Of a DNA stretch of 64,000 nt, positions 350-63,576 are shown piece after piece; within the stretch, counting starts at the first letter, position 1, and the number at the start of each line of letters is the position of its first letter. The stretch spans positions 1,145-65,144 of the IMG/VR virus record IMGVR_UViG_3300020414_001395; one strand, 5' to 3'. This DNA comes from a virus (taxonomy: Duplodnaviria > Caudoviricetes). Position numbers and translations under genes: made by a program. The notes below the pieces were generated by a model, which was given only the letters and a program-made list of their open reading frames with translations, did not search any database and was not told the origin of the DNA.

Positions 350-409
350 TAGTGTGGTATATATACTCTCTCTGAACGTAGTGAAGAGAGTATATATACA
401 CACAATACT
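348..409. repeat. early intergenic hairpin repeat, copy 1
   Basis: GTATATATACTCTCT(357-371)-CTGAACGTAGTGA-AGAGAGTATATATAC(385-399); outer stem AGTAGTGTG/CACAATACT. Confidence 0.95.
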
Positions 410-3108: not shown

Positions 3109-3489
3109 ATGACGCAAGAACAAGTGATGGAGTGGATGGAGAACTACCTCGACGGGACGAAAGCTGAGCAGACGGCCCTTGGTATGATTAAGATAGACAT
3201 CGAAGAGCATGGGTTTGAGAACTGGCTCAAGCTACCTGCCATCCCGATTGTGGAATGGTACGTAACCGCCATCGAAGAGGTGGCTGACCAGCTCATCGAA
3301 GACTATCAATCCATCAAGGGTGTCGAAGACATCATCGGGCAAGCAGGTATTGGGCAATCATATAAGCTCAAGGAGCCAGCAAGCCTTGTCGCCTTCAAGA
3401 ACGGAACCATGGACGTCGTCAACTCCATGCTCATCTACCTAACCACACAGGAAATGGCTAACGCATACTATGCAGAACACACAAACTAA
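3109..3489 (+). CDS. hypothetical protein
   Basis: 126-aa ORF with A-rich leader. Confidence 0.7.
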   Translation: MTQEQVMEWMENYLDGTKAEQTALGMIKIDIEEHGFENWLKLPAIPIVEWYVTAIEEVADQLIEDYQSIKGVEDIIGQAGIGQSYKLKEPASLVAFKNGTMDVVNSMLIYLTTQEMANAYYAEHTN

Positions 3490-3910
3490 AGATATGATGC
3501 TTGAGGTTCGTAGGGAATACGAGCAAAGGCAGGGATACGAGATTGACGACAAGTCAAGGCTCAACCACTATGTCCAAGACAGGGTGGCCCTCGCCAATGC
3601 ACTCAGGCCTTACGCTACGTACAAAGACATCGGGGAGATATTCGGAAAAGACCACGCCACGGTTATCCATTACTGCCGTGAGCACGAGGCCATGATGAAC
3701 TCCTACCCAAGCTACATGGTCAGGTACGAGAATGCACTCAGCCTCACAAGCAGGGTGTCCGATCGTATGGCCATTGCACCCAAGGTGCGTAACGTCAAGA
3801 GCAGGAACCTGCACGCAGAGCTCGCTACTATCAAGCGCACAATCAATAAGTTACAGAAATTTCAAAAGAAAATCGAAGACAAGTTAGGAATCAATGAAGA
3901 GGCTTCGTAA
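3470..3910 (+). CDS. DnaA C-terminal-like HTH DNA-binding protein
   Basis: YKDIGEIFGKDHATVIHY resembles the DnaA domain IV (IGxxFGxRDHxTVxH) motif; C-terminal coiled coil. Confidence 0.65.
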   Translation: MQNTQTKDMMLEVRREYEQRQGYEIDDKSRLNHYVQDRVALANALRPYATYKDIGEIFGKDHATVIHYCREHEAMMNSYPSYMVRYENALSLTSRVSDRMAIAPKVRNVKSRNLHAELATIKRTINKLQKFQKKIEDKLGINEEAS

Positions 3911-14140: not shown

Positions 14141-15186
14141 TACAGTAGTATGTAGTTTATTCCGACAGAGAAGTCGTGCCACTCTCTGTTCCAGTATCTG
14201 TTGTATTTTCCTTCTGTAAATATACCAAGACTTTTGGTAAGCTTGGTTCCAAACACGAGGCCGAAGCCCACATCAACCCACTGGCTGCTATTAACAAAGT
14301 TGTGGTATGAGTACTCGTCTCCCGTGTCCAGGTGATAAGGCATAATATTGCCCCAGGAGTGCAGCCAAAAGTCTCTTTCGTAGTGGTAGAAGTCAAACCC
14401 CAAGACCACTGAGTAAAGCCATTGATTGTCTAGCTCTGATCTCTTTTGAGATACGTAATCATTGAGCACCTGAGGTATAACTACCTGCTCCCATACTGCC
14501 TGATCGTTAGCCACCATGTCACCATCAGGGGAGAAGAACTCGCCAGTATTGACATCAATCGTGTATCCCTGTTCTAGCGCCAGTGCAGTGTAGTGTATCT
14601 GGTTGTTTTCCAGCAGCCATATCTGCAATGGGTCGTACCCGTATGGTTGAGAAATCCTTTGGGCTACACCTGCGTTCAAAGAGAGCTTAGGCCCCAGCTT
14701 CAACCTGAGTCTTTCTGACGCCTCAAAGTATCTAACATCCGCAAATCCATCCTGCAGGTATTCAGCTTTTGCAACCCATCCGTCCGCGACGTATCTGGCA
14801 AAGTAGTCTTGATCAAGAAAGTTCTTGCCCTGCTGTCTGCGCCAGTCTGCTTCAGCTAAGAACTCAAACCCATCGTACTTACCAACCGTTGCTGCGTCAC
14901 CGTAAGTTTTCTCTGTCCCGTCGTAAAACACATTGGCCCTGTTCTCGTACCCAAATCTTGCGATCTTTCTTACCCCAAGAGTAAGGGAGTAGTCGAACGG
15001 AGTTTCTACAACTTCAGTGGTGAGCGGTCCTGTGGCCACAGAAAACACATCTCTGTCCGACACAGAGTTACCACCATTCACCGCAGCATAGAAGGTAGAT
15101 CTCCTTAGCACATCTTTGTAGAAGTCACTCTGACCAAACGCCAGAAGAGGCATGCAGATAAGTACAAGAGCTATAATCCTTTTCAT
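14140..15186 (-). CDS. probable outer-membrane beta-barrel protein
   Basis: Signal peptide; alternating aromatic strands; C-terminal FSVGINYILL. Confidence 0.55.
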   Translation of the reverse strand: MKRIIALVLICMPLLAFGQSDFYKDVLRRSTFYAAVNGGNSVSDRDVFSVATGPLTTEVVETPFDYSLTLGVRKIARFGYENRANVFYDGTEKTYGDAATVGKYDGFEFLAEADWRRQQGKNFLDQDYFARYVADGWVAKAEYLQDGFADVRYFEASERLRLKLGPKLSLNAGVAQRISQPYGYDPLQIWLLENNQIHYTALALEQGYTIDVNTGEFFSPDGDMVANDQAVWEQVVIPQVLNDYVSQKRSELDNQWLYSVVLGFDFYHYERDFWLHSWGNIMPYHLDTGDEYSYHNFVNSSQWVDVGFGLVFGTKLTKSLGIFTEGKYNRYWNREWHDFSVGINYILL

Positions 15187-17243
15187 TGTCTCACGATTGT
15201 TTCCCTCTTGATTCTGCCTTTGTAGTTGGCCATGATTACATACGGACCTGGAGAGGGCAGCTCAACTGTTCTCCCTGTCGTTGTTTCGACCTCCCTGCCC
15301 CTTGCATCAAACACAGTGACGATTGTACCTACAGGCGCCTGAATGTTTACAAAGCTTGATGTGGGATTAGGGTAGAATTGAATGGACGATCTTTCTGCTG
15401 TGCTTACCGACGTTACACCCTCGCCACAGTAGTCGTACATCTCTGCACACACCGCATCCCACGCTGTCTCGCAGCAGTAGGGGTCAACCTCAATCACCCA
15501 GGAGTAGCATTGGTCATTAGCCCAGTACGGTTCGCCTGGACCTGTGATGCAGCCAGCGTCATACACACAGTCATCAGTGGGGGTGTTGGCGTCCTCGTTG
15601 TAGTTGTATGCGTCGATATCCATACAGCCTTCAATAACAGGCAGGCATGAGTCTATATCTACGTTAGCCTCAGGATCGTAGTTCAAGGCCTCGGGGTCTG
15701 TGCATCCAAACACAGCAAGCGTAACGCAGCTGCCATCATCGTAGTCAGCCTCATATCCCTGAGTGTAGTATTCAAGATACCCCGCCTGCGTGCACCCTGC
15801 ATTGTAATAGCAGCTCTCGTCTTCGGTGTTTGCTTCAGGGCTGTAGTTCTGTGCGGTCTCGTCTGTGCATCCGTACATGAATGGCACACAGCTGGTCCCG
15901 CAGTACGGCATAAAGCTGTATACATTCCACTCTGGGTTCTTAAACGGCTGAAGCGACCCCTGCCCGTTATCAAAGAAAGGATTAAGTCCTTCTGCCAAGA
16001 GCGTGTCTCCAAGCTCGTTTGTAATCAGCACAGAGTTGTGAAGCGTCTGGAACTCTGTCTCTTGAGGCGGTTGTTGAGGCCCTCCGATTTCAAAGTAGTA
16101 CACGTCCACCTTTTCGTCGGAGTCAAGGATCAGATCCCATGACTGAGAGAACTCCCCAGGACCCATTGTAAAGATCCACTGAAGGTCTCCCTGCTTGATG
16201 CCTACGTGTGAGTTGCCCCACCCGTCCGCAGCTGCATCACCAAGTCTTATGGTGGTTGCGCAGGGGCTGTTCAAATCCGAGATGGTGGCAGTTGAGTCGT
16301 AGTTAAATGACTCTGGGTCCATGCACCCCCATGTGTGTAATATGAGGCAGTCCCCTGCCTCTGTAGCTTCTGGGTTGTAGTCAACGTAATCGTCGTCCAT
16401 GCAGCCCACTACAGGCTCTTCGATTTCACATGGCTCTACAAACACAGCTCCAGAGTAGTGAACGTTGCCGTCATTGTCTGAGTAGGCTAGATCCTCCAAC
16501 TCCCAGACAACCTCCTCATCGCATGCAGTGATGACCACGCCTCCGTCTTGACCACCGCTGGCCGATCCATTAAGGCCGTCTCCGTATGTGTCTGTCAGAA
16601 TCAGCTCAAAGCCAAGTGCAACGCAGAAGTCGTAAGTGTAAGTGGACAGCTGATCCCCAAAATTAAAGCCCCCTGGAAGAACCTGCTCGTAGAACTGACC
16701 GACAGCCAAGTCTACCAATGTAAATCCAGTTTCGTTAGGCCAGTTGTCTAGTGTCAACTCCATGGAGACAAAGGCTTGCCCCTCTGGGCATTCGCTTACG
16801 TTGCAGGTTCCGTCATCGGTGGTTGCCCATGGGTTGTAGTTGTTAGACGACTCGTCCGTGCATCCAGGTATGGGAAACTGACATGCCTCAAGAATAAATG
16901 GAACTGTGATCTGCTGTGTGTCAAAGTCGAACACAGAGATGTCCAAGCCACAGTCATTGTTTAGCTTGAACCATCCTTCCCCAAACCCGCAACAAATACC
17001 GTCCCCAAACGCATCGTTAACGACTAGGTTGTATTCGCCAGACGGCAGGGGGATGGTGTGCTCAGTGTATGTTGAGTCAGCGTATGGACCGCCAGATGCT
17101 AAAGACTCGTCAGAACCAACTTCATATATGCTCCAAGTGCTTTCTTCGCCGTATGCGTCGCTCTGAAACTCAAGCCTTACCCAGCTAGGCTGTGCTGCAG
17201 CCAATAGGGGCAAGAAAAACAACAGGGAAATTACCCGCTGCAT
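15183..17243 (-). CDS. secreted Cys-rich repeat protein with T9SS type A C-terminal sorting domain
   Basis: Signal peptide from ATG 17243; 7 GC(T/M)D..A.NY...A...D..C-type repeats; FYPNPTSSFVNI...VFDARGREV...GPYVI. Confidence 0.85.
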   Translation of the reverse strand: MQRVISLLFFLPLLAAAQPSWVRLEFQSDAYGEESTWSIYEVGSDESLASGGPYADSTYTEHTIPLPSGEYNLVVNDAFGDGICCGFGEGWFKLNNDCGLDISVFDFDTQQITVPFILEACQFPIPGCTDESSNNYNPWATTDDGTCNVSECPEGQAFVSMELTLDNWPNETGFTLVDLAVGQFYEQVLPGGFNFGDQLSTYTYDFCVALGFELILTDTYGDGLNGSASGGQDGGVVITACDEEVVWELEDLAYSDNDGNVHYSGAVFVEPCEIEEPVVGCMDDDYVDYNPEATEAGDCLILHTWGCMDPESFNYDSTATISDLNSPCATTIRLGDAAADGWGNSHVGIKQGDLQWIFTMGPGEFSQSWDLILDSDEKVDVYYFEIGGPQQPPQETEFQTLHNSVLITNELGDTLLAEGLNPFFDNGQGSLQPFKNPEWNVYSFMPYCGTSCVPFMYGCTDETAQNYSPEANTEDESCYYNAGCTQAGYLEYYTQGYEADYDDGSCVTLAVFGCTDPEALNYDPEANVDIDSCLPVIEGCMDIDAYNYNEDANTPTDDCVYDAGCITGPGEPYWANDQCYSWVIEVDPYCCETAWDAVCAEMYDYCGEGVTSVSTAERSSIQFYPNPTSSFVNIQAPVGTIVTVFDARGREVETTTGRTVELPSPGPYVIMANYKGRIKRETIVRQ

Positions 17244-17362
17244 GACTCGCAATCCTCTGGGTTGTCGATGTTGCAGGTGATCTCACCATCTTCAATCTTC
17301 TTCTCTTGCTTCTTGAGCTTGTCTTGATCAAGAAAGCTGATGTCGTCGAAATCTTCCTCCAT
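17231..17362 (-). CDS. 43-aa peptide ending in CNIDNPEDCESCSG (not in ORF track)
   Basis: MEEDFDDISFLDQDKLKKQEKKIEDGEITCNIDNPEDCESCSG; TAATG coupling to the holin. Confidence 0.7.
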   Translation of the reverse strand: MEEDFDDISFLDQDKLKKQEKKIEDGEITCNIDNPEDCESCSG

Positions 17363-17805
17363 TATTTTTTGGCTTTTTCAATGGTTCTTCCTGCGAAGTA
17401 TGCACCGAAAGAGGTGAGCATTAAGATCTCCAGCAAAGATACGTAACTATCTTTTACGTTAAATGGCCAACCATCCATGCTGTCTGCGACCATTGTAGCC
17501 ATAAACATGACCATTAGGCAGATCAATGTAACAGGTCTAATCAGCTTTGCAAGCTTGACATCACTACCCATGTCCGCCTTCCATCTTTCGCTTACATTGT
17601 TCTGAAACTGAACCTCTGCGTCGAGCATGGCCTTAGCTTCTGCAGGGTCAACATCAGGCTCCTTGTCTAACAGATTTTTTACCACGCCAAGGGCGCCTTG
17701 GTCTGGGAGCAGGTCCCCCACCGTATCCAGTACAGAGGGGGCCTTTTCTTTCAACCACTTGCCAAGGCCAGTGTCTTTGATTTTAGTCTTTTCTGGTTTG
17801 CTCAT
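17362..17805 (-). CDS. holin (3TM gene-transfer-release type)
   Basis: RWKADMGSD...IRPVTLI; two TM segments; YFAGRTIEKAKK basic tail. Confidence 0.7.
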   Translation of the reverse strand: MSKPEKTKIKDTGLGKWLKEKAPSVLDTVGDLLPDQGALGVVKNLLDKEPDVDPAEAKAMLDAEVQFQNNVSERWKADMGSDVKLAKLIRPVTLICLMVMFMATMVADSMDGWPFNVKDSYVSLLEILMLTSFGAYFAGRTIEKAKK

Positions 17806-20800
17806 ATCTCTTGTTGAATTTCATAACGATGCTTCTCTCTTTGTCTGCGAGCTCCTGCATCCTCTTCATTCTCTCTGTGTAGTCCTGTATCTCTAGAGCG
17901 TTTCTTCTCTGCTTTCTTAGGTTGCTCAGCTGCTTGTCGTAAATCTTCAAGACTTCAGACAAAGCGTAAACGCCCTTGTATCTGTCGGGGTCGTCCTTGC
18001 GTCTAGCTCTTTTCATTTCAGCCTTAAGCTCCATGATCTTTTGACGACGGGCCCTGTAATCCTCCACATCCATGTACTTGGATGGCTCTCCGTAAAGGAT
18101 TCTCAAGAAAGGAAGGTCGTTCGCCTCTATTTTTACTTCGTTGTCTGAAGCCTTTGCAGCAAGGCCTCTGACAGCCTCTCCCGTTCTGGTAACAAACTTG
18201 CCCGCGCCACCGATGAAGTACTCAAACAAGTACCACATCTTGTCGGGATTGAAGTCAAGGTCTCCCTTCACCTCCACAGATCCTCCAGTAGCTTCGTTCA
18301 TCCATCTGAAGAATTGCTGGACTGACTCGGGAGATCTAAACGACATTGATGACTCTGGCTGCTGCAACCCGTAAGGCAGATTCTCCTTGAATACAGGACC
18401 CCCAAAGTATGTCTCGTTGGTCATTATGTCTACGATAGGCTTAAACACCGTAGGAACCGCAGACTTACCAGCCTTCGTAAACAGGTCGCTAGATTGACCA
18501 AAGCTGATTGGAGAGAATGAGTTAATGAACGAAGACGTCAGTTGCATCATCGCTGTGTCAATCTCTTTGTGTCCAGCCCCAACTTCAACGGCACTGCTAC
18601 CCAGATTTGCAAACAAGCTGAATCCGTATGGGAGAGGGACCTTGTAGTAGTCTTTCCCGTTGGGGCGCATGATGATGAGGTTTCTTTCCTTGATGTAGTC
18701 TGGTATCTTGTTGTAGTACAACTCTCCATCTTCGTCCTCTCCAGACATCGCAAGAGACAGCATGGTCAGCATACCATTAAACACAGTAAGTGCCGCAGCC
18801 ATCTTCTGGGCGTTGTTCATGCGATCCTTAAACGCTCTCTTCGTGCCGTCTGGGTATGTTGGCTCCTTCAGCGTGAGAAGAGATCTTCCAAGCCTAGCTG
18901 TACCCTGCACAGATGCGTTGAAGAAAAGGTATACTGAGTTCAACAGCTGTCCGTACTCTCCAGACTTGTTGAAGTTTACAGTGATGTTCTTGGCAAGCTG
19001 AGCCGCCTTTTCTCTGCTAACCCCCTTCTCTCTGGCCGCGATGTAGGCCGACAGACGAATGCTGTTCTCGAATGCGTCGTTGACCCCCTCGATGGTTCTC
19101 GCAAACGCCTCTGCATTACCCAAAAGGGTCTGCATTCTTGTCTTGTCTGAAGTCTCAGACTCAAGCGCTGCGGCAATATCCGCGAGTGGCTTTGCATAGC
19201 TCCATCCAGTCTTGCCGCCGTCGTCCCTGAAGTCATTGTAGTACCTTTCAATCTCTGGGTTCTCTTTCAAGAACTTAGACAAGGCCTCAGGGGTCTCGGC
19301 CTTAACCAAAGCCTTCAGCGTCGCGGGAACCTTACGTATCATGTCTGCGACAATTGCGTCGCCTTCGATGATACCCCCTGGGATATCCGCTTCAGCCGCT
19401 GCATTAAAGATGGCTGATTGTATATCTCTTGAGAAGTTAGATATCATAAACTCTGGGTTCAGAGTTGTAAATGATCTTCTGAGCCAGTTTGATGGGGCTC
19501 TCAACATTCTTACAAAGACACTAGTCGCGGGGAGGTTCATATTCCTCAGGGTCTCAGCATAGCTGGCGTCCTTGAATCTTATGAACTTCTGCTCACCATC
19601 AACCCTCACGGATACTGAGTGTGGATCTTGAGAGGTCGCCTTAGATCCATCAACGATTCTCCATACCTTATCGTTAGGATTCTCCTTTACCAGCTCGTAC
19701 AGGGATTGCAAAGCTTCGTTTGTTCTTGCTTTGATGTGTACACTTGCGTTTTGCGCAATCACCTGAGCCAATATGTTTTCAGCCTGAGACTTACGACCTT
19801 CCGCTCTCTTTGTTGTTGGGCCAAACACAGACAGTCCAGCCCCACCCGTTGGGTAGGAAGAGGTAACCGAAGACTCCTCGTCGACAGCGATGCCAGACAA
19901 AGGCACGTAGCTATCAAACTGAGATTCAAAAGCATCAATGGCCTCCTGAGACTCAAGCCCAAACTCAACCATGGTGTCTCTTGTGTCTTGCTGTATATCC
20001 CTAACCATCTTGACTATTGCGTCAAGGGTAGATCTTTTGTCTGAAGGAATAGAGTCAATGATTGACCTAGCCTCCTCGTTTGTCATACCCGACCCGCTTT
20101 CTTCTTTTCCTTCGGTTCTCTCTTCTATGAGTGCGTTTCTTTCTGGGGCGTGAAGAGCATACAGGTAATCAGAAACCTCTTGAACAGAAACTCCACCTTC
20201 CTTCATGGCTTCCACAAGATCTTTCTGCTTATCATCAAGCTTCCTGAGATCCTCCGCAGCCTTTCCGTACATAAGCTCCTCGGCCATTTTGAAGTCCTGA
20301 GATTGATCTCTTACTCCACGGGCAGCCTCTACGTCTTCCTGCAGCTTAAATATGTCAACGTACTTGTCCTGAAGCCTTTTGATCCACTTATTTCTCCAAG
20401 TCTGGAAAGCAGTGAGATCAGAGACCTGCCAAGTGCCTTGGTCCGTTCTCACCGACTTCAGCCCTCTTACGTCTCTAATTGAGGCCTTTCCATTGACGTC
20501 CTGCACCTCTGCATTGACCTCATACTGGCTATATCTGTTAAGAGCCTCCGCCTTTGAGTATGGGTCTGATGCTCCCTCAAACTCCTTCTTTCTTTTTGTG
20601 TCTTTAGCTTTTCCTGAAATATCACCCCCGATAAAGTCTGGGTCAATCTTATCAAGAGTATACTGTTCCTTAAAAACCTCAAGAGATGTTGAATCTCCAT
20701 CGACTATTATAGCTCCAGTAAATCCATATCCAGAAAGATTCTTGACCCTCATGTTCTTGAGAACTACCTGGCCATAATTCTTAAGTATGTCTTGGTCGAT

Positions 20801-23800
20801 CTCGTATGTGAATCTTTTTCCGCCAAACAGCGTTGCGGCTTTTTGGGCTTTCAACGCTGGGTCGTTAAAGTATTCAGCAATTTGCTGATCTATCGTTCCT
20901 GACGTAGGGACGTCCCTACCCATCTCAAAGGCTTCGTGGGAGAAGTACTCCCCCATTACATCCTTGCCAAGGAAAGGCTTTCTAGCTTCGAACTGATCAG
21001 CCATCTTTGTGTGGTAGTTGATGAGTACATCAACTATTTCTTCAAACTGCTTTTGCGTCGTTACAGGAAGAACAAAGTCTGACGAAGAGAACAGTCTTGC
21101 GGTTTCTTCAGAGAGTCCTTCGAAGCCGTCGTTTTCTGCCATCCTAATCATCGTCCTCACCTTAGCTTTCGCGGCTGAAGTAAACTTATCATATATGGTG
21201 GGTCCAGAAATACCCACGTTCTTGTCTCTAGACCTTGCAATAAGGCCTCTCATCACAGCAACAAATACGTCTGGATTACCCTTTGTGGCTTTGTATGTGA
21301 GCGGAGCAAAGAGGCTTCCAAATTTGCCAGACATAGCAATGGCACTATCGGCCTTGTTCATTCTCGACCTCGCTCTCTTCTCCTCGTCCTTGAATCTTAT
21401 GTTGTTTGCCTTGTCAAAGATGGCCTGAGCTTGAGCCCTGTATCTCTCCATTCTTTTTCTTGCCATGGCGAGGTTTACGTGTGTCGAAACCACGGACTCA
21501 CCCTCTTTGAGCTCTTCAAGGTCCGCATCGTCCAAGTCCATTACAGCCCTGGGCCCAGAGGTTATACCTTTTTCTGTGTCAGGCATTGTTTTGTCGTACC
21601 CGCTAGTGGGAGAGAACAAACCCCTATAGTCCTCTAGGTTACCCTCCTGAAAATCTTTCATTTGATTTTCGGGCATCACGTAATCTGGATCCCCAAGGTC
21701 CTCCTTTTTGTACCTAATGGCGAACAGGCCAACGGTGTCTCCAGCCTCGGCGTCATCAAAAGGAACCATACCAGTGGCATTGACGAGGTCGCTGTCCTGA
21801 ACTCTGTTCAATGGAGCGTAAGCCCTAGACCTTCCACTATCATCAATTCGCTTCTCAATGTCCTCCTTGGTCAGCCCCATCTCAAGCGCTGCCTCAATAT
21901 TCTTCTTTGCTATTACTGCAATCCTGTAGTCCTGATCAGCTGTTCTTTCCATGCGCTCAGGCCCTGGGGGTTCGAACTGAAGGGCGTTGACATACCCGTT
22001 CCATGGAAGCTCTCTAAACAGCTTCCTAGACTCGTCTCTAATGTCTCTCGCTTGACGTCTTACCTCCTTTCTTTGATCTGAACGGTCAAATGCCTCTTTG
22101 CGCTTTTGCTGATTGTAGGTCAGGGGGACCTCCATGTAGACTGGATTTCCATCTCGGTCTACCTTTGGTCTCGGAGGGTTCACCTTGTACTTCTTCCCAT
22201 CCTTTATGAAATACATGTTTGCTATCCTGTCAGCCCTTTGGTTGCCAGTCTGCTTGTTGTACCAGTTTCTGAAGTGGAAGTAGTCGTTAACCTTGACTGA
22301 CTTTTGAGCTGAATACGTTGTGTATCTGCTGCTCGTCAATGGAGACTGACCAGGACCAAGGGACGGGTAGTTCGTGTAGAATATCTCTGTGTCCTTCAGG
22401 TAGTCAAAGTTTTTCTTCTGTCTAACGGACAGACGCCCCTGGAACATGTCTATACTTTCAGCGCCCTGCTCAAGCACATCTTCCTTAGGCGTTACTACAC
22501 CCTCAAAGCTGCCAAGCATGGCGTCCGCAGCTTTTGCGATACGAGCGTCAAACTCCTCTTGAGTTTCTGTTGGTCTCTTAGGTGCGACGTCGGGCTGAGC
22601 CTCTTGCTGAGGCTCCTCTTGAACCTCCTCTTGAGTTTCTTCTGCGGTGGCCGTTGCTGGCTCTGGCTCAACTGTTGTCTCCTGACCTTGAGCAGCCCTT
22701 CTGAATTTGTCCGCAAGATCAAACAGGCCTTCGTCCCCTTTGATGACGTTGCCTTTTACTCCAATGCCCTTAAACACTCGGTTAAACGCGGCTCTAATCT
22801 TGTCCTTTACAGAAAGGAACTGATCTGGGTTATTTGCGTATCTGACAAGAACAGATATGATTGACTCTTCCTGAAGGGTAGCATCGGGTCTGCCCTCATA
22901 GAACTTCTTTGTTTCTTCAAGTACGGCCTTAACTGCCTTGGCTCCTTTTGTTTTGCCTTTTGCAATCTTCTCCATCTCCCCATACAGCCGCTGTCTAGCC
23001 TCTGCGTCCTTTCCGATCACTCCCTCAAGCACTGCGTGACCAAACTCCTCAAAGGCGTCAATAGCCTCAGTGTTGTTGTTGAGGTGGATCGTATTTGTGT
23101 CCTTGTCGTAGTAACCGTATATAGCCCCCTTCTTATCCTGAAGGACTTTCATTTGAGCCTTCATCTCAGGGCTAATCGTGCCGAAAGATTCGTCAGTCTT
23201 ATGAAACTTAACCTTTGTCCCAAGCTTGTTTAGAACCCCGCCAAAGGCCTTGGTCATTTTGTTGATGGACGATGCAACAGCTATTGGTATCTGTCCAGCC
23301 CCGTCACCAACAACTTCAGTATCCTTCAAGTCCACCATCTGACCCTCGGCAACGTTGACCTCAAATACGTCCTCTGTCTCCTGCTCTACAGGCTTCTCGG
23401 TAACCTCTTCTTCGACTTGTGTCTCTGCCTCAGTCTCAGCTTCAGCTTCTGGCTCAGCCACAGTCCCAGGCTCCGTGACCTCGTCAAACAAAGACAGCTG
23501 CACAGCCTGCTGCTGCTGACCCTCTGGGGCTGCATCTGTTGCTTCAGGCACATTGTCGTGGGACTTTTTCTCTGACTCCTCTACCTTTCTAGTCTTAGCT
23601 GGCGACTTTTGCTCGCCTGCATCCTCAACCGTAGGCGGTGTCTCAACCTCTCTAGAGGTCTCCTCTTCTGCCTGTCTTTTTTCGACGGCCTGCTCCAGCT
23701 CTGCCTTTTTGTTGAGATTCTCTTCAAGTCTTTCTTCGATGGCCTGCCTCTCTTCTTGAGTGACTGGGTCTCCCGTCCAATGCTTTCCGCTCTTTAGTAT

Positions 23801-25639
23801 TTCCTGAGATCTAGCGATCTCTTGATTGTACTTGATTAGAGCTCCTTTTTCCTCTGGAGAAAAATCATCGTAAAGCTTAGCCTCCTCGTTAGTAATAACC
23901 TTGGCTGCCGCCATAGATTCAACAAGCTCCTTTTCTAGTTGTTGCTTTCTTACGGGATCTGTTTCGGACTCGTACCTCTTTCTCAGGCGAGCCATTTTTT
24001 CCATTACAACGGATCTCTGCGCCATGAACCTTGTATGACCCCTGTGAGAGGCAAGTGAGGTTACTGATATAGGACCAAATCCACCTGCCATACCAGCAAG
24101 TGCGGCATCTGCAACCTCATGGAAGTTTAGATCCCTTACGTTTCTGCCCATCATGATGTTGTCCACAGCGTCAATCGTCCAGTCCGCCACGGCCACTACA
24201 CCCTCTTCAAGGCCTTCTGCTGCCGTCCCCTTCAGTATTCTCTTGCTGAGTCCTTCGACAACCTCTCCGCTCATCTCCTTCTTGGCAGACTCTATGGCAG
24301 CCTTTCTAGATCCAGACCTCAAGCCCTGTACGGCATAGTCCGCACCAACCTTCATCTTCAAGAGAAGGGCGGCCATACCAACTTCTGCCGTGGCTCTAGC
24401 CGCAGATGTAAACGCAGCCTCAGATATGCTCATGTGAGGTGAGTAGGCTCTCGTGTTTCCGTAGCTCTCTCCAAACACATCAACAGCCATTACCGCAGGG
24501 TTCACAGCCATTTCAGCTATGGACTTCAGTCCATCAGCCATAACTCTTCCAGTCTCAAGAGACGTTGTGGCAAGGTAATCCCCGATAGAGATGTCTCCGT
24601 TCCACGCGGCCATAGTTCTTTCGGTAATCCCTTTCGAATATGCCTCCTCAGAAACGCCCAACCCCTCATAGAAAACCCTTTCTTTCTCTGAGTTTATTTG
24701 GTTGGTTTCTTTGATCTTATCCTGATAGTACTGAGAGGTAAAAGAATCTCCGTAAAGGTTTCTCATGCCGAGGCCTTCCCCATATACATCCGCTTGGAAG
24801 GCGGCCATCCCAGACACCATGTTGGAAATGCTGAGATCTCCCAAGAGAAGGCTTCCGTAGCCAACCTCTTCGTCGCGCATTCCTGGGATCTGTCGAATAA
24901 ACTCTTCAGTCTTTTGATCAAATTCCCTTTCGTCTCTCTCAGCTCTTTCTGCGGACTCCCTGAGGAACAAACCAAAGTCTGACTCACTGTTTATGTCGTA
25001 CTCAAGGTCAATACCAAGAGACTTGTTCATTTCGTTTGCTTTGCTCAAGGCCAGCTGATAGCTGTTCTTACCAAAGCCAATCATTTCGTTGCCAGCCTCT
25101 TGTATCTTGGCCAGGGTCTCTTGATCGTACTCTTCTTCAATGCTGAACTCGGGCAGCAAGTTGTTTCTTTGCGCCTCCTGCAAAGCCTTTGTTATGGCCT
25201 TGGGGTCATTAAAGTTGACAGCTCTTACCAGATTGTTTCCAAGCCTGCTGTTCATAACCCCGTTCATTGCCAGCTCGTCGTTCTGACGAATCTGAAAAAG
25301 ACGAGGATCAGCTATCGACTCTTGGGATCCAAGTGATTGGGGATCGGAATCCAAGGACTCCCCACTTAGTACGGATGGAGAATCTTTTTTTTTTAAGCCA
25401 TCATACGCCTCCCTCTGCTGCCTGAAGAGTTCGTCTCTTCTTTCTTTCTCCTGAAGAAATGCTTGACGCTCCTCTTCATGCCTCCGAATAAACTCGTTGG
25501 AAACGTCGGCAGGGTTGTACCCCACATACGACATGATCTCGACGATTCTGTTTGAATCGTATCCCTTCCTCTGAAGTGCATCAATTCCTTCCCCAACAGG
25601 TATTTGATTGTTGGTAGGTGTAGTAGAATCTCCGTTCAT
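17783..25639 (-). CDS. large polyvalent / internal virion (ejection) protein, 2618 aa, with C-terminal LPD38-like region
   Basis: NPEFMISNFSRD, AKNITVNFNKSG, LFFNASVQG, KVPLPYGF; zincin-like AFEEFGHAVL near residue 870; position after tail genes. Confidence 0.75.
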   Translation of the reverse strand: MNGDSTTPTNNQIPVGEGIDALQRKGYDSNRIVEIMSYVGYNPADVSNEFIRRHEEERQAFLQEKERRDELFRQQREAYDGLKKKDSPSVLSGESLDSDPQSLGSQESIADPRLFQIRQNDELAMNGVMNSRLGNNLVRAVNFNDPKAITKALQEAQRNNLLPEFSIEEEYDQETLAKIQEAGNEMIGFGKNSYQLALSKANEMNKSLGIDLEYDINSESDFGLFLRESAERAERDEREFDQKTEEFIRQIPGMRDEEVGYGSLLLGDLSISNMVSGMAAFQADVYGEGLGMRNLYGDSFTSQYYQDKIKETNQINSEKERVFYEGLGVSEEAYSKGITERTMAAWNGDISIGDYLATTSLETGRVMADGLKSIAEMAVNPAVMAVDVFGESYGNTRAYSPHMSISEAAFTSAARATAEVGMAALLLKMKVGADYAVQGLRSGSRKAAIESAKKEMSGEVVEGLSKRILKGTAAEGLEEGVVAVADWTIDAVDNIMMGRNVRDLNFHEVADAALAGMAGGFGPISVTSLASHRGHTRFMAQRSVVMEKMARLRKRYESETDPVRKQQLEKELVESMAAAKVITNEEAKLYDDFSPEEKGALIKYNQEIARSQEILKSGKHWTGDPVTQEERQAIEERLEENLNKKAELEQAVEKRQAEEETSREVETPPTVEDAGEQKSPAKTRKVEESEKKSHDNVPEATDAAPEGQQQQAVQLSLFDEVTEPGTVAEPEAEAETEAETQVEEEVTEKPVEQETEDVFEVNVAEGQMVDLKDTEVVGDGAGQIPIAVASSINKMTKAFGGVLNKLGTKVKFHKTDESFGTISPEMKAQMKVLQDKKGAIYGYYDKDTNTIHLNNNTEAIDAFEEFGHAVLEGVIGKDAEARQRLYGEMEKIAKGKTKGAKAVKAVLEETKKFYEGRPDATLQEESIISVLVRYANNPDQFLSVKDKIRAAFNRVFKGIGVKGNVIKGDEGLFDLADKFRRAAQGQETTVEPEPATATAEETQEEVQEEPQQEAQPDVAPKRPTETQEEFDARIAKAADAMLGSFEGVVTPKEDVLEQGAESIDMFQGRLSVRQKKNFDYLKDTEIFYTNYPSLGPGQSPLTSSRYTTYSAQKSVKVNDYFHFRNWYNKQTGNQRADRIANMYFIKDGKKYKVNPPRPKVDRDGNPVYMEVPLTYNQQKRKEAFDRSDQRKEVRRQARDIRDESRKLFRELPWNGYVNALQFEPPGPERMERTADQDYRIAVIAKKNIEAALEMGLTKEDIEKRIDDSGRSRAYAPLNRVQDSDLVNATGMVPFDDAEAGDTVGLFAIRYKKEDLGDPDYVMPENQMKDFQEGNLEDYRGLFSPTSGYDKTMPDTEKGITSGPRAVMDLDDADLEELKEGESVVSTHVNLAMARKRMERYRAQAQAIFDKANNIRFKDEEKRARSRMNKADSAIAMSGKFGSLFAPLTYKATKGNPDVFVAVMRGLIARSRDKNVGISGPTIYDKFTSAAKAKVRTMIRMAENDGFEGLSEETARLFSSSDFVLPVTTQKQFEEIVDVLINYHTKMADQFEARKPFLGKDVMGEYFSHEAFEMGRDVPTSGTIDQQIAEYFNDPALKAQKAATLFGGKRFTYEIDQDILKNYGQVVLKNMRVKNLSGYGFTGAIIVDGDSTSLEVFKEQYTLDKIDPDFIGGDISGKAKDTKRKKEFEGASDPYSKAEALNRYSQYEVNAEVQDVNGKASIRDVRGLKSVRTDQGTWQVSDLTAFQTWRNKWIKRLQDKYVDIFKLQEDVEAARGVRDQSQDFKMAEELMYGKAAEDLRKLDDKQKDLVEAMKEGGVSVQEVSDYLYALHAPERNALIEERTEGKEESGSGMTNEEARSIIDSIPSDKRSTLDAIVKMVRDIQQDTRDTMVEFGLESQEAIDAFESQFDSYVPLSGIAVDEESSVTSSYPTGGAGLSVFGPTTKRAEGRKSQAENILAQVIAQNASVHIKARTNEALQSLYELVKENPNDKVWRIVDGSKATSQDPHSVSVRVDGEQKFIRFKDASYAETLRNMNLPATSVFVRMLRAPSNWLRRSFTTLNPEFMISNFSRDIQSAIFNAAAEADIPGGIIEGDAIVADMIRKVPATLKALVKAETPEALSKFLKENPEIERYYNDFRDDGGKTGWSYAKPLADIAAALESETSDKTRMQTLLGNAEAFARTIEGVNDAFENSIRLSAYIAAREKGVSREKAAQLAKNITVNFNKSGEYGQLLNSVYLFFNASVQGTARLGRSLLTLKEPTYPDGTKRAFKDRMNNAQKMAAALTVFNGMLTMLSLAMSGEDEDGELYYNKIPDYIKERNLIIMRPNGKDYYKVPLPYGFSLFANLGSSAVEVGAGHKEIDTAMMQLTSSFINSFSPISFGQSSDLFTKAGKSAVPTVFKPIVDIMTNETYFGGPVFKENLPYGLQQPESSMSFRSPESVQQFFRWMNEATGGSVEVKGDLDFNPDKMWYLFEYFIGGAGKFVTRTGEAVRGLAAKASDNEVKIEANDLPFLRILYGEPSKYMDVEDYRARRQKIMELKAEMKRARRKDDPDRYKGVYALSEVLKIYDKQLSNLRKQRRNALEIQDYTERMKRMQELADKERSIVMKFNKRYEQTRKD

Positions 25640-53719: not shown

Positions 53720-53793
53720 TACGCCCGCCAGGATTCGAACCTGGGACCGTCTGCTTAGAAGGCAGATGCTCTATCCAACTGAGCTACGAGCGC
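53720..53793 (-). tRNA. trnR-UCU: tRNA-Arg(UCU)
   Basis: GCGCTCG/CGGGCGT acceptor, GCTC/GAGC D-stem, TCTGC-CTTCTAA-GCAGA, TTCGAAT T-loop; CCA not encoded. Confidence 0.95.
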
Positions 53794-54047: not shown

Positions 54048-54121
54048 TTGGGGCGGCGGGACTTGAACCCGCGACTTCCTGTGTATAAGACAGACGCTCT
54101 AACCAACTGAACTACGCCCCA
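54048..54121 (-). tRNA. trnI-UAU: tRNA-Ile(UAU)
   Basis: TGGGGCG/CGCCCCA acceptor, A73, TCTGT-CTTATAC-ACAGG anticodon arm (TAT at 54085-54087), GCGGG-TTCAAGT-CCCGC; CCA not encoded. Confidence 0.88.
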
Positions 54122-61282: not shown

Positions 61283-61346
61283 AGAGAGTCTTAGTATATA
61301 TACTCTCTCTGAACGTAGTGAAGAGAGTATATATACAAGACACTCT
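61283..61346. repeat. early intergenic hairpin repeat, copy 2
   Basis: 15-bp core 61294-61308/61322-61336; outer AGAGAGTCTT/AAGACACTCT. Confidence 0.95.
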
Positions 61347-61378
61347 TGAAACCTTTTTCAAACTTCAATTCAATCACC

Positions 61379-61525
61379 ATGCAGACATTTGCAGCTACCC
61401 GCCGTCAGCTTATCGCTGACCTCCTCGACCTCCACCTCTCCTTCGACGCAGTGCGTGCCACCGCTGAGTGGGACGAACTCACCTGCCTTGAGCAAATGAC
61501 CTTGGAGGACTTGATTGAGATGTAA
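61379..61525 (+). CDS. 48-aa hypothetical early protein
   Basis: MQTFAATRRQLIADLL...; CAAACTTCAATTCAATCACC leader. Confidence 0.6.
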   Translation: MQTFAATRRQLIADLLDLHLSFDAVRATAEWDELTCLEQMTLEDLIEM

Positions 61526-61533
61526 TCTCAAAT

Positions 61534-61591
61534 CTCAGGTACACTGACGAGCCTTGAGTAGGCGAAACACCACGAAAGTGGTGTCTGTATC
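61534..61591 (+). ncRNA. type I hammerhead ribozyme
   Basis: Stem I GGTACA/TGTATC; core CTGACGA; stem II GCCT-TGAGT-AGGC; GAAA; stem III ACACCAC-GAAA-GTGGTGT; GTC cleavage triplet (cut after 61585); loop II TGAG complementary to upstream CTCA. Confidence 0.92.
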
Positions 61592-61610
61592 AAACTTCAA
61601 TTCATCTACG

Positions 61611-62024
61611 ATGGACTATCAAAATCTCATGCTTCTGCGCTACATGAACGTGCAAAGCGGCAACGGATTCTCCGTTGACAAAGACCTCGACGGCTACAGC
61701 CCCGTGGTGGAGGCGTATGCAGTAGGCGGCGCGACTGAATCGGTTGAGATGATTGACAACAACTTGTTGTCATTCAACACCTTCCGAGAAATCATGGAAC
61801 TCAAGATTGAGTTCATCGAGAACACCGAACGTTACTTCCGTAACGTGGACCCCATCGGCAAGTACCAACAGGTAATCGGTGCTTGGGTGAACGACGACAA
61901 CTACGTCTACATCGAGGTCTCCGACATCGTGTTCGACCGCGAAGAGGCCATCGCCTTGGGTAAGGAGCGCGAAGAGGAGGCCATTTGGGACTTCAAGAAC
62001 AACTGCGAAATCAAACTCACATGA
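61611..62024 (+). CDS. hypothetical early protein (MDYQNLMLL)
   Basis: Start reassigned to ATG 61611; the track start 61554 lies inside the ribozyme. Confidence 0.7.
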   Translation: MDYQNLMLLRYMNVQSGNGFSVDKDLDGYSPVVEAYAVGGATESVEMIDNNLLSFNTFREIMELKIEFIENTERYFRNVDPIGKYQQVIGAWVNDDNYVYIEVSDIVFDREEAIALGKEREEEAIWDFKNNCEIKLT

Positions 62025-62347: not shown

Positions 62348-62410
62348 GAGAGTGTTAGTATATATACTCTCTCTGAACGTAGTGAAGAGAGTATATATAC
62401 AACACCTCTC
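62348..62410. repeat. early intergenic hairpin repeat, copy 3
   Basis: 15-bp core 62358-62372/62386-62400; outer GAGAGTGTT/AACACCTCTC. Confidence 0.95.
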
Positions 62411-62435
62411 AATGTCAAACTTCAAATCCAATCTT

Positions 62436-63484: not shown

Positions 63485-63544
63485 AGAGTGTTAGTATATA
63501 TCTCTCTCTGAACGTAGTGAAGAGAGATATATACAACACCTCTC
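63484..63544. repeat. early intergenic hairpin repeat, copy 4 (compensated 1-bp deletion)
   Basis: GTATATATCTCTCT(63494-63507)-CTGAACGTAGTGA-AGAGAGATATATAC(63521-63534). Confidence 0.95.
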
Positions 63545-63576
63545 AACAACATTGTCAAACTTCAAACTCCAAACCA

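Follow-up and report, generated by a model that had tools for sequence, protein, structure and literature searches.

The analyzed window is a stretch of 64,000 nt that comprises most of a 65,144-base IMG/VR record rated complete by CheckV. The genome encodes a portal protein, a large terminase, a primase/helicase, and an exonuclease. Between two small genes of the same orientation, the window contains a sequence in which all elements of a type I hammerhead ribozyme can be read directly from the letters (61538–61591, plus strand). The preliminary description of the locus had spoken of two early genes; the small co-oriented genes are indeed present on both sides, and the attribute "early" is deduced from gene order and strand. 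A long hairpin repeat precedes four further genes of the window, and all five genes share a leader motif. The coordinates of these features are compiled in Table 1.

Table 1. Positions of the hammerhead elements, the flanking genes, and the long hairpin repeats in the window
Feature	Position	Strand	Remarks
Long hairpin repeat	357–399	+	Leader motif 420–430, ATG 441
Long hairpin repeat	61294–61336	+	Leader motif 61358–61368, ATG 61379
Upstream small gene, 48 aa, family f1	61379–61525	+	From the ORF list; TAA stop 61523–61525
Small 5′ hairpin TTGAGAT-gta-ATCTCAA	61515–61531	+	Aligned as the 5′ hairpin of RF03152
Invariant A directly 5′ of stem I	61537	+	A in 115/115 distinct family members
Stem I, 5′ strand GGTACA	61538–61543	+	100% paired in the family; double changes at all six pairs
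Catalytic core C3–A9, CTGACGA	61544–61550	+	Kept in 7/7 loci found via the downstream protein
Stem II, GCCT/AGGC	61551–61554 with 61560–61563	+	Loop TGAGT (5 nt); whole element 61551–61563
Core G12 A13 A14 (GAA)	61564–61566	+	Direct reading
Stem III, ACACCAC/GTGGTGT, GAAA loop	61567–61573 with 61578–61584	+	Direct reading and family alignments
Cleavage triplet GUC	61583–61585	+	C17 = 61585
Predicted scissile bond, C17 (61585)/U61586	61585–61586	+	From the GUC position in the hammerhead fold
Stem I, 3′ strand TGTATC	61586–61591	+	Direct reading and family covariation
Shared leader motif TCAAACTTCAA	61590–61600	+	10 nt before ATG 61611
Downstream gene P0001, 137 aa, family f3	61611–62024	+	ATG 61611; function unassigned
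Long hairpin repeat	62358–62400	+	Leader motif 62415–62425, ATG 62436; orthologue in L007 has a hammerhead instead
Long hairpin repeat	63494–63534	+	Leader motif 63555–63565, ATG 63577; one pair shorter, compensated deletion

The order of the elements defines the type I topology, with stem I open and stems II and III closed by loops. Stem I of the window copy consists of six pairs, one of them a G-U pair, and the A15.1-U16.1 pair is formed by A61567 and T61584 as part of stem III. Every element that had been listed for a complete type I hammerhead was recovered in its place, including the canonical core and the GUC site. One detail was corrected: the GCCT/AGGC helix of stem II exists as proposed, but its loop has five nucleotides rather than the four (UGAG) that had been assigned to it.

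The specificity of this assignment was analyzed with a descriptor of our own, which required the core together with stems that have minimum lengths of 5, 3, and 4 bp. On both strands of the window, it matched the 61538–61591 site only, and there was no match in 200 dinucleotide-preserving shuffles of the window. The bare core pattern without stems is not rare, as the reversed-pattern control gave two matches, and it is therefore the helices that carry the signal. By its sequence, the element is a genuine hammerhead, and it would be expected to cleave itself in vivo.

Search with the Rfam hammerhead models, which had been proposed as a check, left the element undetected. At the gathering thresholds, neither the window nor 14 related loci yielded a hammerhead. 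RF00163 (Hammerhead_1, gathering threshold 34 bits) matched nothing in the genome even when E ≤ 10 was allowed. The best permissive match, to the RAGATH-1 hammerhead RF03152, reached 20.4 bits (E = 0.27) and remained below the gathering threshold of 56.3 bits. The window copy resembles RF03152 in the succession of a 5′ hairpin, a linker of 6–7 nt, and a type I hammerhead. It differs in stem II, where the model has a single pair and the window a regular helix of 4 bp with a loop of 5 nt, and the 5′ hairpin of the window's family is limited to one subclade. A blastn search with the hammerhead region against cultured phages yielded no match, and the family is unannotated in RefSeq. In Flavobacterium phage vB_FspP_elemoE_6-9C (NC_055854.1), where the family member is located at 16300–16365 on the minus strand, the annotation places a gene for a 35-aa hypothetical protein, gp65, precisely on top of the hammerhead but on the other strand (16289–16396; L103 2638–2745). 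This gene has very probably been called in error. The Rfam hammerhead models have a blind spot that comprises the whole family.

Relatives of the downstream protein P0001 were found on seven IMG/VR contigs, and a hammerhead directly precedes the homologous gene in all seven; two of these loci contain a second copy. The preliminary description had made its claim dependent on the conservation of the core positions in related genomes. The core and the three stems were found to be kept, and compensatory changes had occurred in stems I, II, and III among the seven loci. A pattern scan of IMG/VR retrieved 94 stretches with the family pattern. When 88 distinct copies were aligned with MAFFT, pairing amounted to 100% in stem I, 99.4% in stem II, and 98.6% in stem III; this alignment was not fitted to a covariance model, and it agrees with the model-fitted alignment described below.

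A family covariance model derived from the MAFFT alignment gave the window copy a score of 76.6 bits, compared to 9.6 bits for the next best match in the window. Applied to 95 sources, the model located 151 copies, of which 115 are distinct; 27 copies had escaped the pattern search. In the alignment of the 115 distinct copies, which was fitted to the model, 99.7% of the stem cells were paired (100%, 99.6%, and 99.5% for stems I, II, and III), and changes on both sides were observed at 13 of the 15 stem pairs. The covariation score of 0.714 compares with 0.167 in shuffles and no more than 0.078 in slid controls. Because the core and a portion of stem I on its 3′ side were prescribed by the search pattern, the invariance of the core in the large set is partly due to construction, and the unbiased set for core conservation is that of the seven loci found via the protein. 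Variant cleavage triplets (GUA, AUC, and UUC) occur in the family and still obey the NUH rule. The invariant core would imply selection on catalysis.

The 115 distinct copies are distributed over about 90 viral contigs and 68 records of cultured Flavobacterium (Elemovirus) phages. Among 185,579 prokaryote genomes, there was one real match to the family pattern, on a contig of 2.9 kb; a second match, in a Spirochaetia MAG, lacks stem II and was rejected as a chance match. The family is therefore encountered in isolated phages and in free viral contigs, but hardly ever in the genomes of bacteria. The window genome has a single copy; in relatives, as many as four copies lie in 1.6 kb and bracket single small genes. 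Tandem arrays of three to four hammerheads, each before one small gene, were seen in L024, L102/L039/L038, L076, and G004 (21482–23082). A few copies carry an insert of up to about 80 nt in stem III (e.g. L024 2476–2595).

A pseudoknot between loop II and the nucleotides 5′ of stem I had also been postulated. In the window copy, CUCA (61534–61537) is indeed complementary to UGAG (61555–61558) of loop II, but this complementarity is not a property of the family. Across the 88 relatives, the helix is only 53.8% pairable and shows no covariation; three of the four pairs are unpaired in 44–59 of the 88 sequences, and only the A-U position is invariant. The 4-bp pseudoknot was therefore rejected as a family feature. 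A mutual-information scan of loop II against both flanks revealed nothing convincing. The family consensus of loop II is U-N-A-N-U, and an AA after stem I is nearly invariant. Together with the flanking A, these features would fit a non-Watson-Crick tertiary contact.

A gap of 6 nt separates the small 5′ hairpin from stem I, and the upstream gene has its stop codon at the hairpin loop. Three compensated variants were found in relatives (GAGAT/ATCTC, GATAT/ATATC, and GACAT/ATGTC), and in other relatives, the hairpin is replaced by the unrelated 4-bp hairpins CAGC/GCTG or CTGC/GCAG. Family-wide, the region upstream of the hammerhead is not unusually structured (median z −0.28; z < −1.5 in 21%). 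The 5′ hairpin is a feature of a subclade and not of the family. In the minimum-free-energy fold of the window copy, UCUCAG (61533–61538) pairs with CUGA.GA, and stem I is not formed.

The hammerheads are always located between open reading frames of the same orientation, and the upstream stop codon is at a median distance of 6 nt. In many related loci, the hammerhead is preceded by a homologue of the upstream f1 gene. The predicted cut is 24–28 nt upstream of the ATG in 67 of 88 cases. In the window, the 3′ product would begin with 61586–61610, in agreement with the 25-nt leader that had been proposed. The leader, taken from stem I to the ATG, contains 4.1% G and 47% A, whereas the window has 22.7% G. 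Bacteroidota initiate translation without Shine-Dalgarno pairing, and a G-poor, A-rich leader suits such a host.

The motif TCAAACTTCAA has five exact copies on the plus strand of the window, each of them 10–11 nt before an ATG; four are preceded by a long hairpin and one by the hammerhead. When one mismatch was allowed, nine matches were found compared to 2.3 expected, and nine were reached in none of 100 shuffles. Within the leader of P0001, ATCAAACT (61589–61596) is the complement of AGTTTGAT, a sequence close to the 5′ terminus of 16S rRNA in bacteria, in the region of the 27F primer. The other four leader motifs share only TCAAACT with this stretch. A complementarity of 8 nt can be due to chance, the rRNA segment is paired in mature ribosomes, and we regard the match as no more than a curiosity.

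According to a thermodynamic model, the mean unpaired probability of the start region is 0.66 in the uncleaved and 0.61 in the cleaved RNA, and an unmasking of the start codon by cleavage is thus unsupported. Cleavage of other sites in trans by this single ribozyme was examined as well and does not hold here: beyond its own site, the early region has no sequence that fits the substrate arms. At 3 mismatches, there were 12 matches versus 5.6 expected, and none of them is at a gene leader.

The four long hairpins are built from the stem GTATATATACTCTCT/AGAGAGTATATATAC with the conserved loop CTGAACGTAGTGA, and each is located 15–22 nt before the shared leader. Their core comprises 15–16 bp, and including an imperfect outer extension, the helix reaches up to about 25–30 bp. 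Comparison with Rfam assigned the repeat to no family and gave only spurious matches to miRNA precursors. The distribution of the two structures was quantified in 45 related loci. Genes of family f1 are headed by a hairpin in 25 cases and by a hammerhead in 5, those of family f3 by a hairpin in 1 and by a hammerhead in 19, and those of family f4 by a hairpin in 9 and by a hammerhead in 2. When a hairpin-headed and a hammerhead-headed copy of f4 were compared, which share 58% protein identity, the DNA homology restarted exactly at TCAAAC. At least three unrelated hairpin sequences occupy equivalent places in relatives, sometimes within one genome, which argues for recognition of the shape and not of the sequence. 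The long hairpins may be RNase III sites, stabilizers, or protein-binding sites, and we infer a function in RNase III-type processing or in stabilization. The exchange shows that the two structures are equivalent in some role, but not what this role is.

The host of the phage is likely a member of the marine Flavobacteriia. This assignment is based on three observations. The large terminase is 41–48% identical to terminases of Flavobacterium (Elemovirus), Cellulophaga, Tenacibaculum, and Maribacter phages. Toward its C terminus (15276–15374, minus strand), a 689-aa protein encoded by ORF 15183–17252 resembles the T9SS sorting domain Por_Secre_tail at a score below the cut-off (22.6 versus 27 bits), which points to a host among the Bacteroidota. 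The exact P0001 protein occurs on 16 contigs, and the five of these that were listed stem from marine or JGI metagenomes, including two Tara Oceans samples. RtcB, which would have provided a link to phage-encoded RNA repair, was searched for in the genome and not found. A protein of 2618 aa (17783–25639, minus strand) matched only PHROG families of very large proteins (3400–3900 positions) that have no assigned function. It was considered as an N4-like virion RNA polymerase, for which the hairpins would be promoters, and had no sequence match to solved structures. The genome also contains two phage tRNA genes on the minus strand, at 53720–53793 (71.1 bits) and at 54048–54121 (68.7 bits), the latter with the anticodon loop CUUAUAC and the anticodon UAU.

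We propose that a functional type I hammerhead acts within a rightward early polycistronic RNA, where it serves as a punctuation mark before a shared leader and can be exchanged for a hairpin; we assign this reading a probability of about 0.6. The hammerhead would be contained in the early polycistronic transcript of a marine phage, most likely one of Flavobacteriia, and would fold and cut itself after C61585 as soon as the 3′ strand of stem I is made. The cut would detach the portion of the transcript that covers the first two early genes from the portion behind it. The upstream RNA would retain a 2′,3′-cyclic phosphate and a compact structured 3′ end formed by stems II and III, and the downstream mRNA would start with a 5′-OH and a fixed, G-poor, Shine-Dalgarno-free leader of 25 nt that contains TCAAACTTCAA. 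Hammerhead and long hairpin would be two interchangeable marks placed directly before the shared leader. Self-cleavage in vivo, the polycistronic transcript, effects on stability or translation, and the role of the hairpins are what we infer from the arrangement, and punctuation of the early polycistronic RNA is the most likely role of the hammerhead. As the folding model revealed no gain at the start region, the benefit would more likely consist of a defined 5′-OH end, separate decay fates of the two RNAs, and insulation from the upstream sequence, as is the case with RiboJ.

Several other explanations were considered. The hammerhead could substitute for a terminator by forming the 3′ end of the upstream message, and a promoter of the downstream gene could overlap TCAAACTTCAA, so that the cut would matter only for the upstream RNA. 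T4-type phages have cassettes of a stem-loop and an early promoter that resemble this arrangement, and it would be in line with the fixed distance of TCAAACTTCAA before five genes, with the structured element that always precedes it, and with the shuffled gene order around the modules in relatives. However, the distance between the motif and the ATG is only 10–11 nt, and the sequence located 20–35 nt upstream of the motif differs fully between hairpin and hammerhead modules, which leaves no conserved room for a two-box host promoter. In addition, the composition of 4% G and 47% A fits the translated leader of a host that initiates independently of Shine-Dalgarno motifs. We regard this explanation as unlikely. 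A similarly improbable alternative is that the ~80-nt repeat of hammerhead and leader is the boundary of a mobile cassette, i.e. a site of homologous recombination that shuffles early genes and at which catalysis is secondary. Families f1, f2, f3, f4, f11, f45, and f74 are indeed found in varying order beside hammerheads in related contigs, and the homology breaks precisely at the module borders. A DNA recombination site would not, however, need thirteen catalytic nucleotides and three stems that are kept via abundant compensatory changes. A cassette boundary and catalytic punctuation are not mutually exclusive.

Cleavage might also be conditional. The 5′ hairpin, a ribosome that terminates at the stop codon in the hairpin loop, or pairing of UCUCAG with the core could gate the folding of the hammerhead and thereby couple expression of the downstream gene to translation of the upstream gene. 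The compensated variants of the 5′ hairpin, the stop codon that several subclades hold at the hairpin loop, and the minimum-free-energy fold, in which the UCUCAG pairing replaces stem I, would all be compatible with such a switch. Yet the 5′ hairpin is missing in most members of the family, as the median z score and the 21% with z < −1.5 indicate, and the alternative pairing needs a CUCAG, in place of which most relatives have ACAGG; this makes such a switch improbable. Finally, a chance or decayed hammerhead-like motif without function might be suspected from the fact that no Rfam hammerhead model reached its threshold. The comparative data refute this: the element is unique in the window and absent from the shuffles, and more than 100 variants show its conservation together with covariation. 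Catalytic punctuation of the early RNA remains our preferred explanation.

Hammerheads that flank genes in phage and prophage regions were described in 2011; they cleave in vitro and in E. coli, and a role in transcript processing was proposed (PMC3088659). In the haloviruses HF1 and HF2, a hammerhead precedes the early helicase gene, and the 5′ end of the early HF2 transcript is at most 3 nt from the cleavage site, 13 nt before the ATG (PMC3088659). The window's family shares with these elements the canonical core, the intergenic location in the orientation of the genes, the occurrence as single or clustered copies that bracket genes, the cut site a few to tens of nucleotides before the start codon, the presumed association with an early polycistronic unit, and the proposed role in the processing of long phage transcripts (PMC3088659). 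It differs from them in its occurrence in uncultured viral contigs and isolated Flavobacterium phages and not in bacterial genomes, in the nearly fixed G-poor leader of 24–28 nt, in the alternation with long hairpins at orthologous positions, and in not being recovered by the Rfam models. The window element is, therefore, a new example of the known phage hammerheads and not a new kind of element. A literature search for a link between hammerheads and Flavobacterium or Cellulophaga phages found none.

The early genes of phage T7 are separated by RNase III processing hairpins. The long hairpins of the window are likewise placed at gene junctions of an early operon, and the hammerhead occupies the equivalent place at one junction. 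The comparison applies to the neighboring hairpins, for which RNase III cleavage would have to be assumed here, and not to the hammerhead itself, which leaves a 5′-OH and a cyclic phosphate, whereas RNase III leaves a 5′-phosphate and a 3′-OH. A parallel for the hammerhead may be RiboJ, a synthetic 5′-UTR ribozyme insulator; in E. coli, it increases the levels of both transcript and protein (PMC6206723). In both cases, a hammerhead directly before a defined leader would strip off the upstream context and create a constant 5′ end (PMC6206723). RiboJ was engineered from a type III hammerhead of a satellite RNA, and a hairpin was added after the cut (PMC6206723), whereas the window element is natural, of type I, and followed by an unstructured leader.

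The role of bacterial and phage hammerheads is largely unsettled, and the family described here offers a tractable case, with more than 100 natural variants, a fixed distance to the start codon, and a natural exchange with hairpins at orthologous genes. It is this interchange before a shared leader that makes the function of the hammerhead testable, and both cleavage and its effect on expression could be studied in the 68 cultured Flavobacterium phages that carry the family. A more far-reaching version of the proposal, which we consider possible but rather doubtful, is that in phages of Bacteroidota, each early gene needs a free or structurally insulated 5′ boundary before a shared A-rich leader, that either a self-cleaving hammerhead or a long processing hairpin can supply it, and that cleavage is required for the downstream gene to be translated efficiently or to be stable as RNA. 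Ribozyme-dependent translation was recently reported for RNA viruses (PMC13725137). If this version were true, the family would be a natural bacterial counterpart both of the RiboJ insulator and of the ribozyme-dependent translation of RNA viruses (PMC13725137).
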